Source: Candidatus Nanohaloarchaea archaeon (GTDB taxonomy: Archaea; Nanohalarchaeota; Nanosalinia; Nanosalinales; Nanosalinaceae). Taken from it: a stretch of DNA of 64,000 nt. The DNA lies in assembly GCA_013343275.1 (NCBI GenBank), contig CP046106.1, forward strand, positions 160,001 through 224,000, written 5' to 3'. The translations under genes were made by a program, and so were the position numbers. How positions within the stretch are numbered: the first letter of the stretch is position 1; the number at the start of each line of letters is the position of its first letter. Shown here in pieces: positions 47,252 through 50,679 of this stretch. Below the pieces are notes generated by a model. The model did no database searches. It saw nothing but the letters and a program-made list of their open reading frames with translations, and was not told where the DNA came from.

Positions 47252-47294
47252 AAGTTAATTTTTAAGTAGGATGTTTTGTAATGTGATTGTATGT

Positions 47295-48542
47295 ATGAAC
47301 TCGGGCAGTCTTTACTCTATGATGACAACAGGTTTCTCCACACACACACACACGGATAGTAAGAAATTAATTTCTGGCTCAAGTAAAGGCCAGTCAGCGA
47401 TCGAGTACTTGACCACTTATGGCTGGATGCTCTTGGTTGTTGCAATTGTTGGAGGCAGTATTTTTACTACAGTTCAGGGTCAGGCACAGCTTGAGACCTC
47501 AGGATTTGAGAATAGCGGTGTTTCACTCGTTGATTCTGGTATGACTGGCAGTTTCTACGCAATGCAGCTACGAAACACGGAAGCTAACCAGATAGAAGTA
47601 CAGAAAATAACTTTGTCAGATAGCAACACCGAAGTTGTTAAAAGGCCTGAAGAAACTATTCCAGCAGCTGGAGAATCCACTTTTCAGTTAATCGGTTTAG
47701 CAGAGTCAAACGCTCAAAACACTGTGAACGTAAAAATAACTTATGATTCAGATGGCCTCAACAACCTGGTAGCAGAAGGTACAATCACAGGCAATCTAGA
47801 ACTCAACACAGAAAAAGCAGAGCCCGGGAACGGACAATGGGAGTTCGTAGACGTCTCCAAAGTCCCGCAGAGAACAGTCGATACCTCTGGGATGTCTGAT
47901 TTCTATATTATGAAGTATGAGGCCTCAGCAAAGTCAAATGTTTCCAATCCTCCTACTTCTGCTACTCCTGTCTCAGTTAAAGGCAATATTCCGTGGGCAC
48001 AGATCAGTCAGAACGAGGCTATACAGGTCTGCCGAGATGCTGGCTACAGTCTTCCGTCTAATAAGCAGTGGCAGGCAGCTACAATGGCAGAGATCGGCAA
48101 CGCGAGTACGCAACCGTTAGGTAATACGAACAGTGGGAGCGATGCTAATGGTAACTCCGGCACTCCCGATCCTACCCAGAATGGTCGTGTCTTGACCGGT
48201 ACTGGCCCAAGTTCCTGGGCGAACCCGATCGGAGTCTACGACCTGAACGGTAATGTCTGGGAATGGACTTCCACAGTTGTTGACCAATCGCATCCGATGC
48301 ATAAAGGAGGGAGCGATGGAAACGTGGCTTCCTGGAACAACAATGGTTATCCTGAGACTCTGGGTAGTGCTAATTCCAGTCTAGGCAGTGATTATTACTG
48401 GTCTTCATCGAACGATAACCGTGCCGTTCGGCGTGGTGGCGACTGGAACGGTGGCGCGGGGGTCGGAGTGTTCTCCATGTCCCTGGGCAACGCTCCGTCG
48501 GACTCGGGCACGGACTTCGGGTTCCGGTGTTCTCTTTCCTGA
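47295..48542 (+). CDS. DGR target: class III signal (pilin-like) N-terminus plus FGE-sulfatase/C-type lectin domain with C-terminal VR
   Basis: KG|QSAIEYLTTYGWMLLVVAIVG; F.IMKYE, LPS..QW, G.YDLNGNVWEW, RGG.W, GFRC; candidate starts 47271, 47295, 47319, 47322. Confidence 0.9.
   Translation: MNSGSLYSMMTTGFSTHTHTDSKKLISGSSKGQSAIEYLTTYGWMLLVVAIVGGSIFTTVQGQAQLETSGFENSGVSLVDSGMTGSFYAMQLRNTEANQIEVQKITLSDSNTEVVKRPEETIPAAGESTFQLIGLAESNAQNTVNVKITYDSDGLNNLVAEGTITGNLELNTEKAEPGNGQWEFVDVSKVPQRTVDTSGMSDFYIMKYEASAKSNVSNPPTSATPVSVKGNIPWAQISQNEAIQVCRDAGYSLPSNKQWQAATMAEIGNASTQPLGNTNSGSDANGNSGTPDPTQNGRVLTGTGPSSWANPIGVYDLNGNVWEWTSTVVDQSHPMHKGGSDGNVASWNNNGYPETLGSANSSLGSDYYWSSSNDNRAVRRGGDWNGGAGVGVFSMSLGNAPSDSGTDFGFRCSLS
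47339..47353 (+). repeat. (CA)7C dinucleotide microsatellite in the DGR target leader
   Basis: CACACACACACACAC, read as THTHT. Confidence 0.9.
48419..48530 (+). repeat. DGR variable repeat (VR)
   Basis: 112-bp ungapped match to 49373-49484 with 17 mismatches, all at TR adenines. Confidence 0.96.
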
Positions 48543-48642
48543 TTGCTGGAGGCTGGTTTGCTATGAGAATTAATTGTTTTCCGGCGTTTGGAGAAGTTAA
48601 TCTGGCAAAATCTCTTATTCAGGAAGCTGAGGCCGATCTCTA

Positions 48643-49020
48643 ATGGGAGAGATGGATTTCACTGGTTTGCAGGCGTATGAGGAGGTTTCTCCAGCAGTTG
48701 TGAAAGGTCTGAAATTATTGAGAGATCTGGATGATTACGATACATACTGGGATTTTATTTTGAAGGGTTTGCGGCGTGACCTGGCTGAGTCCCTGCCCCT
48801 GCTCGCTGACGGGTATAACCGGTATCACTATGATGACAAGGCGGAGGCTTATCGGAAGGCTCGGAGCAAGATGTCGAGGTGTCAGTCCTGTTTCCTGATT
48901 TTGAAGGATGTCGGTGTTCTCAACAGTAAAGATGTTTCATCGGTCTGTGAGGGTTTGGAAGGTGGCATCGGACGCCTTAATGGTTTGATCAGTCGTATGG
49001 AGGATGATTCCGGTGCGTGA
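48643..49020 (+). CDS. Four-helix-bundle protein (23S-IVP/Avd-like superfamily), divergent
   Basis: F..L..Y, LADGYNRYHYDDK...Y.KAR, LNGLI resemble the 'IAEG..R...D...F...ARGS' family pattern. Confidence 0.7.
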   Translation: MGEMDFTGLQAYEEVSPAVVKGLKLLRDLDDYDTYWDFILKGLRRDLAESLPLLADGYNRYHYDDKAEAYRKARSKMSRCQSCFLILKDVGVLNSKDVSSVCEGLEGGIGRLNGLISRMEDDSGA

Positions 49021-49345
49021 TTTGAAGCTGTTTCAGAAAAGCTATGATTTTTATGAAGAAGTTTATCCAACTTTGAAGAATTTTCCCCAATCGGAGCGTT
49101 TTGTCATGGTGCAGAAAATCCAGGATTCTTTCCTTGATTTTATCTCTCATATTATTTCAGCTCGAAAAGCCAGTAACACTCTTCACTACTTGAGGAAGGC
49201 GGATAGAGAGCTTGAGAAGACGAAGATTTTCTTCCGTCTCTCCCGCGACCTTGGTTTTATTTCGGCTGGCCAGCACGAAAATATTTCTGAGGACTTGGTT
49301 GAACTAGGTAAGATGCTTGGAGGCTGGATAGACAGTGAGAAATGA
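49004..49345 (+). CDS. avd: DGR accessory variability determinant Avd
   Basis: L.LFQK.YD, FP..ERF, L.KAD.ELE.....RL..DL.FI, ELGKMLGGW; immediately upstream of TR. Confidence 0.92.
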   Translation: MIPVRDLKLFQKSYDFYEEVYPTLKNFPQSERFVMVQKIQDSFLDFISHIISARKASNTLHYLRKADRELEKTKIFFRLSRDLGFISAGQHENISEDLVELGKMLGGWIDSEK

Positions 49346-49372
49346 TATTAGGGCCGGTACTGTTTTCGGAGC

Positions 49373-49484
49373 CCGTGCCGTTCAACGTGGTGGCAACTGG
49401 AACAATGGCGCAAGAGTCGGAGTGTTCTCCATGAACCTGAACAACGCTCCGTCGAACTCGAACACGAACATCGGGTTCCGGTGT
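49373..49484 (+). ncRNA. DGR template repeat (TR)
   Basis: AAC-rich copy of the VR, between avd and RT. Confidence 0.95.
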
Positions 49485-49683
49485 CCTCCCGTCTTTTTCA
49501 GGCGAGAACCTGGTCATCCAAAGGATGCCGGGGCAAAGCCGATCATGTGGAGGGAGAACTTCGGTGCCGGCCTGCCCAACCGACGAAAAGAGCGGAGGCG
49601 AAAAATTCTCTAAAAAAGCGGATGACAGCCAGTAAACACGGCGTTGAAAGCTGAAATCCGCCACATCTCTTCTTTTCAGAAAA

Positions 49684-50679
49684 ATGGTTGACAGTTTTTC
49701 AGGAAGTTTTGAGGAGATAGCAGGTTTTCAACCTCTCTACAAAGGTTATAGAGAAGCCAGGAAAGGAAAGCGTTACAGTGGAGAAGTCCTAAGTTTCTCC
49801 AAGGATTTAGATAAGAATCTTCACGAACTCTCCAACAGCCTTTTCGCTGGTAGTTACAGGTCTAAGGGTTTCAAGAAGTTTAAGCTGTTTGATCCGAAGG
49901 AAAGAGAGATTTCTGCTCCTTATTTTCGTGATCGTATCGTCCACCGCTCTCTCCACCGCTCTCTGGAGCCTTTCTTTGACAGGAAATTTATTGAGGATTC
50001 TTTTGCGTGTAGAAAAGGTAAAGGCACTCACGCTGGTGTTGATAAAGCACAGGAGTTTATGCGAAAACAGGATGCGGATTACTTTCTGAAATGTGATGTT
50101 AAAGGATACTTTGACAGCGTTGACCACAGTATTTTGCTGGATATGCTGAAAAGGCAGATCAGGGACGAGAAAATAATCGAATTGATACAGGCTATCTTGT
50201 CAGTTTCAGGCAGTAAAGGTATTCCGATCGGCACTCTGTACAGCCAGTTGTTCGCCAACATCTATCTTAACAGGTTCGATAATTTTGTGAAACAAGGCCT
50301 TCAGGAGGATTACTATGTGCGGTACATGGATGATTTTGTGTTTTTCAGTGATTCAAAGCAGAGACTGCACGAACTTAGAGAGGCCTGTAAAGGATACTTG
50401 GCTGATGAGTTGGATCTTGAGATCCCTTACAGCAAAACTACTTTGGAACCGGTGAACAAAGGTTTGACTTTTCTCGGGTACAGGATTTTTCCTCAGCACA
50501 GAAAATTGAGGAAGAGGAACAAGAAGAAATTCAGGCAACGACTGGAAAACCAGAAAAGGGCCTTGGAAAAAGGTGAAATTGATTTCTCCGAGTTGAAGGA
50601 TTCGATTGATTCATGGAGAGGTCATGCCAACCATGCTGATACAGAAAATTTGAGGGAGGAGGTTATTGGTGTCCTGTAA
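49684..50679 (+). CDS. DGR reverse transcriptase
   Basis: PKER.I.AP.FRDRIVH, SFACRKGKG.H, KCDV..YF.S, GIPIGTLYSQ (DGR-type SQ), YVRYMDDF, FLGY. Confidence 0.95.
   Translation: MVDSFSGSFEEIAGFQPLYKGYREARKGKRYSGEVLSFSKDLDKNLHELSNSLFAGSYRSKGFKKFKLFDPKEREISAPYFRDRIVHRSLHRSLEPFFDRKFIEDSFACRKGKGTHAGVDKAQEFMRKQDADYFLKCDVKGYFDSVDHSILLDMLKRQIRDEKIIELIQAILSVSGSKGIPIGTLYSQLFANIYLNRFDNFVKQGLQEDYYVRYMDDFVFFSDSKQRLHELREACKGYLADELDLEIPYSKTTLEPVNKGLTFLGYRIFPQHRKLRKRNKKKFRQRLENQKRALEKGEIDFSELKDSIDSWRGHANHADTENLREEVIGVL

Follow-up and report, generated by a model that had tools for sequence, protein, structure and literature searches.

A chromosomal diversity-generating retroelement of a nanohaloarchaeon, with a target that is most likely a pilin-like lectin and a possible phase switch in the leader of that target

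Diversity-generating retroelements (DGRs) are, to our knowledge, the one natural system in prokaryotes that directs hypermutation at specific proteins. Here, we describe a locus in a 64,000-nucleotide (nt) stretch of DNA from a Candidatus Nanohaloarchaea archaeon (contig CP046106.1, positions 160,001 to 224,000; the whole stretch is called the window below) that reads as a complete DGR with a single target and is very likely in working order. The setting is the chromosome of a nanohaloarchaeon-like archaeon of the DPANN group, and the source genome (G000) is closed in one contig of 915,886 bp and 96.5% complete. It was compared with a closed genome of the same genus (G001), with related genomes (among them G021 and G022), with metagenomic targets (L031 and L033), with database proteins (P numbers) and with two sequencing runs (X1 and X2). 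The DGR block occupies positions ~47252-50825 of the window, from the end of orf176 to the point at which similarity to G001 resumes. Its parts follow one another in the order target gene, an open reading frame (ORF) called Avd2, avd, template repeat (TR), 199-nt spacer and reverse transcriptase (RT), and the variable repeat (VR) lies within the 3' end of the target. We identify the locus as a DGR because four things occur together: mismatches confined to adenines, an RT of the DGR type, an Avd protein, and a C-type lectin (CLec) target with a 3' VR.

The repeat pair carries the identification, and its two members are placed as follows.
48419..48530, + strand: VR, covering codons 384-420 of the 423 codons of the target
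49373..49484, + strand: TR, with 27 A and nine AAY codons

The repeats are offset by 954 nt and, when compared without gaps, align over 112 nt with 17 mismatches, each of which falls on an adenine of TR. TR is composed of A27 C31 G32 T22, and 17 of the 27 A are altered while none of the 85 other positions is. The probability that 17 of 17 mismatches land by chance on the 27 A among 112 positions is 1.6e-13. Homology breaks off at 48418/49372 on the 5' side and at 48531/49485 on the 3' side, and a repeat search stretches the pair to 116 nt at 84%. An earlier note, made from the letters of this DNA, had reported the same coordinates and the same adenine-only mismatches, as well as the nine AAY codons of TR in the frame of the target; realignment reproduced all of these, with VR in the target frame. 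The note had also put the theoretical space at 4^27 variants, which holds for DNA (1.8e16) and shrinks to 4.6e13 for protein. The sole A-bearing codon of TR that can become a stop is AGA (VR 48459-48461, TR 49413-49415), by conversion to TGA, and truncation of the target is expected in about 1/16 of the rewrites of that codon. Among 25 homologues, the 14 codons in which TR has an A at position 1 or 2 average 8.9 distinct residues, against 2.6 for the other 23 codons. In G021, the TR is 90% identical to that of the source, and the adjacent VR differs from its TR by 15 A-site mismatches and 1 non-A mismatch, plus one at the 3' edge of the repeat.

Might TR and VR be an ordinary duplication, the differences having come to lie on adenines by chance or through a mutational bias that involves no retroelement? 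Going from TR to VR, A is replaced by G at 14 sites, by T at 2 and by C at 1, and a deaminase-like process could in principle mimic such a skew. The excess of A>G (14/17, binomial P 4.7e-5 vs 1/3) is an uneven A>N spectrum and as such counts against the DGR interpretation as well. The skew is no family trait, however, because the substitutions in G021 (6 G, 7 C and 2 T) follow a different spectrum within the same A-only-type pattern. It may instead reflect selection or chance acting on a single written variant rather than a property of the enzyme. Moreover, the restriction to adenines is as improbable as stated above, and both Avd and a DGR-type RT flank the repeat. We consider the chance that the pair is an ordinary duplication negligible and continue with the DGR.

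The DGR has a single target. A search of the whole closed genome with TR for remote VRs, a step that the earlier note had proposed, matched TR and this VR alone, the 7 further matches being chance ones of 14-23 nt with E of at least 0.39. A search of the genome for the CLec domain returned the target and TR alone, and an RT search of the source genome returned the self-match alone and no second RT. By comparison, the related element of G021 has an adjacent and a remote target. The remote one (G021:C1:9181-10413) lies ~104 kb from the G021 cassette and has a VR that matches the same TR; its leader is of the short canonical kind (MKFRTSKG / Q), and a CA tract is absent, in which it differs from the target adjacent to the cassette.

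The remaining core parts of the cassette are listed here.
49004..49345, + strand: avd (accessory variability determinant)
49684..50679, + strand: DGR reverse transcriptase, 331 amino acids (aa)
49485..49683, + strand: TR-RT spacer with predicted structure
48519..48536, + strand: VR end resembling an initiation of mutagenic homing (IMH) site, the common GC-rich GGGTTCCGGTGT followed by VR-specific TCTCTT

The RT has IGTLYSQ and YMDD in its translation (RVT_1, E 6.2e-25), the first of which fits IGxxxSQ (motif 4), presumably a marker specific to the DGR RT clade. Its closest solved relative is 8ub7_A, the reverse transcriptase of a DGR ribonucleoprotein (E 1.1e-55, residues 10-323), and the best group II intron RT is far behind (E 3.4e-24). 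A DGR-RT-specific NCBIfam model was absent among the NCBIfam matches of the RT. The protein has an isoelectric point (pI) of 9.17 and is 73% identical to the RT of G021 and 60% identical to that of G022; the 8 phage DGR RTs listed, that of the archaeal virus ANMV-1 included, are 38-41% identical to it. Avd scores 100.6 bits against NF033474, for which the equivalog cutoff is 80, and also matches PF22296 bAvd (E 2.2e-22). It has a pI of 6.84 and is 93.6% identical to its counterpart in G021. The earlier note had called the element intact, with avd and an RT bearing IGxxxSQ and YMDD on either side of TR, and we agree with it, as all defining parts are present.

Downstream of TR, the spacer can be aligned across three genera and is predicted to form, among others, helices 49509-49519/49523-49533 and 49622-49629/49650-49657. 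RNAalifold on 3 sequences gave 37 pairs, in which 93.6% of spacer cells are paired vs 31-46% in slid controls, and 13 pairs show changes on both sides. These results suggest that the spacer is a structured part of the DGR RNA, the fold being derived from the same 3 sequences on which it was scored. Rfam gave no match within the cassette and found an SRP RNA, a 5S rRNA and 3 tRNAs elsewhere in the window.

The GGGTTCCGGTGT core is present at 5/5 VRs (source, G021 adjacent and remote, L031, L033) and at 3/3 TRs (source, G021, G022), with degeneracy at two positions (Y and B) among the VRs and TRs inspected. What follows the core differs between the two kinds of repeat. The flank of VR reads TCT(C/T)T(T/G) in 5 VRs and continues with a (C)CTGATTG-like word in 4/5, while the flank of TR reads CCT in 3 TRs and CCTCCC in 2/3. 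By analogy, this difference would follow the IMH/IMH* logic of the Bordetella element as set out in the main text of PMC5758913. Unlike in Bordetella phage BPP-1, no conserved hairpin was found 3' of the source VR in the comparison with G021, a point that was pursued no further: the stretch of 100 nt that separates the target stop from Avd2 is not conserved in G021, in which Avd2 starts ~20-40 nt after the target, and a contig of X1 skips the 100-nt stretch of the source.

How the parts would work together can be proposed as follows. TR and the structured spacer would be transcribed, and RT, together with Avd and probably Avd2, would copy the RNA to cDNA while misreading adenines. The cDNA would then replace VR, guided by the common GC-rich end (IMH) and by the flank that is specific to VR. 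Each such event could draw up to 14 residues anew, giving access to ~4.6e13 variants of the protein, and these residues would lie on the face of the C-terminal FGE/CLec domain that binds the ligand.

The anatomy, the adenine-only differences, the families of RT, Avd and CLec domain, and a conserved cassette with hypervariable A-codons across the family can be read directly from the sequences compared; activity at present, the part played by Avd2, display at the surface and the ligand go beyond them and are inferred. The count of non-A mismatches, 0 here and 1 in G021, would fit recent activity, as the earlier note had proposed. An alternative is that the cassette is intact but silent, VR having been written at an earlier time and frozen since, either because expression was lost or because a host factor is missing. 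The A>G skew could then be that of a selected, fixed variant, and loss appears to be common in that the DGR is missing from 21/24 other genomes of the family. A search for sequencing runs yielded two DNA runs (shares 0.08 and 0.05) and no RNA run; at 80% likeness, the two contain contigs of relatives, mostly <90% alike, and not of the source strain. None of the pieces listed spans VR, and three of them end or start inside it (at 48440 for X2 record 7, at 48479 for X1 record 3, and from 48525 onward for X1 record 4); this gap in coverage was not counted as evidence. Against silence, the ORFs are intact, there are no non-A mismatches in 112 nt, and RT, Avd and Avd2 are 73-94% conserved between genera with the catalytic YMDD kept. 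We therefore regard a frozen cassette as unlikely and favor a working DGR. As a separate matter, the runs that share words with the cassette include a brine metagenome.

The protein that the DGR diversifies appears to be a lectin on a pilin-like carrier, and its parts are these.
47271..48542, + strand: DGR target, 423 aa in the longest ORF, with leader, predicted class III-type signal, N-terminal helix, beta-sandwich and C-terminal FGE/CLec domain that contains VR
47385..47471, + strand: predicted class III (archaeal type IV pilin-type) signal, K39-G40 / Q41-S-A-I-E-Y-L, with hydrophobic helix 43-67
47493..47804, + strand: predicted pilin-like beta-sandwich, residues 75-178, an AF2 block with pLDDT 77-91

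Residues 217-420 match PF03781 FGE-sulfatase (E 2.8e-15), and VR lies at the 3' end of this domain. Homologues number 145 at E<=1e-5; the closest bear nanohaloarchaeal names, and the two targets of G021 are 64-66% identical to that of the source. Before the CLec domain, the N-terminal sequence runs ...SSKG / QSAIEYLTTYGWMLLVVAIVGG..., in which we take the motif KG / QSAIEY to be a class III signal. The motif is unchanged in 3/3 close homologues, and a QSAIEY-like motif stands near the N terminus in 108/133 family proteins. Leaders in the family are mostly 3-10 aa (98/108), and that of the source target, at 40 aa from the first ATG, is unusually long by comparison.

The structure model points the same way. 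AF2 predicts a helix at residues 43-67 and is confident for residues 75-178 alone. The best of 1650 Foldseek matches is 8fk7_A, an archaeal type IV pilus of Pyrobaculum (E 2.6e-4), aligned over 135 columns of the 136-aa chain with a TMt of 0.49. The pilin-like module recurs, with 2 paralogues in the source genome, 10 matches in G021 and 16 in G022, and elsewhere it is fused to LamG, PKD, PQQ-propeller and PLD C termini in nanohaloarchaeal proteins, some of which are named "flagellin-like" by JGI. PF00437 (T2SSE-type ATPase) has 4 matches above the cutoff in the genome, and one of them (C1:617520) precedes a pilin-like paralogue (620389) by ~2.3 kb.

Two results tell against a pilin-like target. 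No HMM matched the class III signal in the Pfam and NCBIfam scans, and PF01478 (prepilin peptidase) has 0 matches in the genome at E<=0.01. The mean pLDDT of the target model is 51.7, with low confidence in the CLec part, and the exposure of the VR residues is therefore deduced from the fold family. On balance, the target is most likely a type IV pilin-like lectin or adhesin borne on the surface or on a pilus, a reading that follows from the position of the CLec domain on a module with signal, helix and beta-sandwich. A presumed role of DGRs in DPANN symbionts, whose genomes are tiny, is to adjust how the cell attaches to its host. The adhesin of the source would plausibly be used for contact with a host haloarchaeon. 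With a diversified lectin tied to an archaeal type IV pilin-like carrier, the adhesin hypothesis becomes concretely testable. A literature search for "class III signal peptide" together with DGR found no relevant paper.

A candidate for the processing enzyme lies outside the cassette, ~590 bp upstream of the target.
45786..46682, - strand: membrane ORF of 298 aa, possibly a class III signal (prepilin) peptidase

Its nearest clusters in the Atlas are archaeal Peptidase_A24 (score 0.93, 211 shared features), and PF01478 reaches just E 6.9. The ORF is also found in G001, which lacks the DGR, and its assignment as an A24-type prepilin peptidase is possible, as a lead. We note that an archaeosortase/exosortase-family gene lies nearby at 45228-45809 (+ strand; TIGR04178, 45.7 bits with a cutoff of 23) and is likewise found in G001. 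Two genes for the processing of surface proteins, one of the archaeosortase type and one a candidate of the A24 type, thus sit just upstream of the cassette.

The ORF between the target and avd is a second candidate accessory protein.
48643..49020, + strand: Avd2, 125 codons, predicted acidic four-helix bundle of the Avd family, overlapping the start of avd by 17 nt

Avd2 is 89% identical to its counterpart in G021, which is above the conservation of both RT and target. Close homologues are few, 10 among 5.8 billion clusters, with 52 representatives at E<=1e-3 among 1.84 billion, and Avd2 occurs in none of the bacterial and CPR DGR loci examined, where Avd is common. PF05635 is matched by 22 of 33 relatives of Avd2, and hhalign of the profile of the 33-member family with the Avd profile gave 93.4% with E 2.4e-7 over 109 columns. 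AF2 models Avd2 with four helices (pLDDT 81.9), and the top Foldseek matches are 2gsc, 2rld, 8ub7_C (TM 0.64/0.70) and 4dwl_D, none of them at E<=0.001. We conclude, on the basis of profiles and model, that Avd2 belongs to the Avd/23S-rRNA-IVP four-helix-bundle family. The case is weakened in two respects: the match of Avd2 itself to PF05635 is subthreshold (E 0.0046, 17.6 bits vs a cutoff of 33.8), and a narrow profile of 10 sequences reached only E 0.12 against Avd.

Charge also sets the accessory proteins of the source apart. Avd proteins have an average pI of ~9.5 according to the main text of PMC5758913, whereas that of the source Avd is 6.84 and that of Avd2 is 4.87, so Avd2 is not the basic protein that the family would lead one to expect. 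Basic pI may not transfer to a halophile as a criterion, however, because the proteome as sampled is acidic, four neighboring proteins having a pI of 4.2-4.8. Prediction of an Avd-Avd2 complex (score 0.06, mark 0.32) speaks neither for nor against binding. Two avd genes were counted in 1 of 372 DGRs in a survey (main text of PMC5758913). Avd2 is probably a lineage-specific cofactor of the DGR, and as a conserved second paralogue of Avd it is a candidate for a new kind of DGR cofactor.

The leader of the target may add a second layer of variation, at two features.
47291..47297, + strand: double start ATGTATG, in which the ATG at 47291 opens MYELGQSLL... and the ATG at 47295 opens MNSGSLYS..., the latter in the pilin frame here
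47339..47352, + strand: (CA)7 tract, which belongs to the target's 5' leader; the Gln codon of the predicted cleavage site lies 38 nt downstream

Of all dinucleotide repeats in the genome of 915,886 bp, the (CA)7 tract is the longest, and the genome is strongly depleted in such repeats: tracts of at least 5 units number 2, vs 23-34 in 5 first-order Markov simulations. We note that homopolymers of at least 9 nt are likewise few in the source genome, at two only. Because the tract lies between the in-frame ATGs (47271, 47295, 47319 and 47322) and the cleavage site, changes in the number of CA units shift the frame, and no ATG, GTG or TTG lies between the tract and the KGQ site. With 7 units, as in the source, the MNSGSLYS...STHTHT frame joins the pilin, and likewise with 4 or 10; with 5 or 8 units, the MYELGQSLL...LHTHT frame does so; with 6 or 9 units, there is no in-frame start. 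Conserved DNA led by ATGTATG is present upstream of the tract in the source, in L033 and in the G022 paralogues, and both leader peptides occur in homologues. Both ATGs presumably serve as starts.

Comparison of relatives is consistent with a tract that changes in length. A CA tract is found at the same position in G021, L031, L033 and two tandem paralogues of G022. An 11-nt CA pattern occurs at 9 sites in 7/41 related genomes, of which 4 are at pilin-like genes (source, G021 and two in G022), 2 are in methyltransferase genes and 3 are unexplained. Among ten database proteins, 8 of them CLec targets, 3 have a leader of the MYELGQSLL type, 4 one of the MNSGSLYS type and 3 another. P0029 and L033 are 99.5% identical over 432 aa and yet have alternative leader frames; judged from the protein, the tract behind P0029 would be two CA units (4 nt) longer than that of L033. 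Identity between P0003 and L031 is 99.75% across 406 aa, and in L031 an in-frame start is lacking. In a contig of run X2, from a relative, 4 nt are missing at the tract at 47339. For seven family proteins, the start was placed at the internal Met of ...EYLMTYGW..., which would follow from the absence of an in-frame start upstream.

Together, the pattern suggests that the CA tract is a contingency locus, with phase variation on top of DGR diversification. The target would then be under two stacked systems, in which the DGR rewrites the tip of the lectin while slipped-strand changes of the (CA)n tract behind its double ATG switch expression from within the cleavable leader. We hold this combined reading tentatively, as possible but somewhat short of probable. 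A known case of similar design is oipA of H. pylori (PMC10564699), which shares a dinucleotide tract (CT in that case) within the 5' part of the coding sequence of an adhesin at the surface, and the length of this tract sets the frame. The source differs in that its host is archaeal, the tract is in a leader that is presumably cleaved, and the gene is also a DGR target; moreover, because two ATGs overlap in it, the gene would be ON in two phases out of three. The titles and abstracts searched held nothing pertinent on DGRs with phase variation or simple sequence repeats (SSRs), or on phase variation by such repeats in archaea. If the switch is real, one population would contain nonexpressing cells beside expressing cells with differing lectin tips, and the logic of contingency loci would extend to Archaea and be layered on a DGR. 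SSR phase variation would then occur in an archaeon and on a DGR target, and nanohaloarchaea, given such CA tracts also in the frameshifted N6-methyltransferase genes of two relatives, would keep a small "phasome."

CA tracts elsewhere in related genomes deserve mention on their own. An N6-adenine DNA methyltransferase-like gene has CA tracts of 23 nt (L193, G008:C1:491236-491258) and 15 nt (L197, G012:C1:533756-533770). The halves of the gene, FHWQLEFP... before the tract and GFDAVIGNPPY/W after it, are in different frames in both genomes, and it looks like a phase-variable restriction-modification gene. After each of two further tracts (L196 and L202, G014:C3:33345 and 41638) stands one and the same CACGTTTCCGGTGAAA-like word, which looks like a repeated element.

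How the cassette came to its chromosomal position is best seen in G001. The cassette is flanked by genes for Hef helicase, DUF460, an archaeosortase-family protein, prefoldin and FtsY; these flanks are syntenic in G001 at 62-95% identity, and the cassette is absent there. The earlier note had called the element chromosomal, and its place between housekeeping genes with synteny in G001 bears this out. Between orf176 and prefoldin, G001 has in place of the cassette a 474-codon ORF for a LamG-like secreted protein on the opposite strand (L211, 9520-10944), and the site reads as a variable slot for surface proteins. GC content across the cassette is 0.43-0.52, with no departure from the flanks. 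The RT was found in 3/24 other genomes of the family and in 0/16 genomes of four sister families. G021 has a cassette of the same gene order at another chromosomal place, ~440 kb from the syntenic block, and synteny between the DGRs of G021 and the source is ruled out by that difference in place. Housekeeping identities between G000 and G021 are 79% for FtsY, 68% for Hef and 54% for DUF460. Identity alone therefore shows no transfer, as RT (73%) and target (64-66%) are within the housekeeping range of 54-79%, and the sole sign of it is the different chromosomal place. The patchy distribution is compatible with relocation and repeated loss.

Perhaps the cassette is instead part of an integrated virus or other mobile element and its target is a viral receptor-binding protein. 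Many DGRs are phage-borne, the cassette stands where G001 has other DNA between syntenic genes, its place differs in G021, its distribution is patchy, and homologues of target and Avd2 are filed under the name Haloplanus salinus. The inserted block of ~3.6 kb, however, consists of DGR parts only, and the N-terminal module of the target is common to many cellular nanohaloarchaeal surface proteins. Moreover, Avd2 had 51 pattern matches in IMG/VR, with 0 confirmed, the RT matches in phage records (n=178, including the 8 above) are all <60% identical, and the identities of RT and target to G021 are those of housekeeping genes. A viral origin of this kind is very improbable, and we retain a DGR with a cellular target.

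The Haloplanus salinus homologues are an observation in their own right. P0011, a homologue of the target (53%, with KGQSAIEYL), and P0122, a homologue of Avd2 (92%), have adjacent locus tags on a 2.97-Mb contig. Haloplanus salinus is a haloarchaeon, the kind of organism on which nanohaloarchaea live. The pair of homologues points to either cross-phylum transfer of the cassette or a mixed assembly.

DGRs as such are not new to these archaea. The earlier note had said that the class was already known from DPANN archaea, and La Cono et al. (2020, PMC7443923, main text) have indeed published a homologous DGR with FGE/CLec targets from Ca. Nanohalobium constans LC1Nh. That organism is of the same phylum-level group and, by genome grouping, of a different genus than the source; P0004 and P0006, which NCBI names from it, are 63% identical to the source target. 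The pilin-type signal, the second Avd-like gene and the CA tract go unmentioned in the main-text passages of PMC7443923 that were consulted. We found no description of the pilin-type carrier, Avd2 or the CA tract, all three of which characterize this nanohaloarchaeal DGR lineage, with the supplements of PMC7443923 and PMC5758913 possibly bearing on the point. The DGRs of nanoarchaea and other DPANN members (Paul et al. 2015, PMC4372165; Handa et al. 2016, PMC5006420; main texts) share with the source small-genome symbiotic hosts, CLec targets and small Avd-like ORFs that sit between the target and the RT. Neither main text contains the words "pilin," "signal peptide" or "transmembrane," and thus a class III signal with a beta-sandwich carrier as in the source is undescribed there.

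The Bordetella phage BPP-1 element (mtd-avd-TR-brt; 8ub7, 4dwl) is the other useful reference. Common to both are the order target-avd-TR-RT, the A-specific differences, the VR at the end of a CLec domain, the GC-rich IMH-like end, the spacer RNA 3' of TR and an RT related at the E value of 8ub7_A given above. The source cassette differs in being chromosomal and archaeal, in having an extra Avd paralogue, and in having a pilin-like cellular target instead of a tail fiber. The locus provides a clean DGR from a closed genome in a second nanohaloarchaeal genus.

Finally, we note a prefoldin-like ORF at 50953-51378, 3' of the RT, with glutamine-rich ends and imperfect, CAG-rich families of 36-nt repeats.

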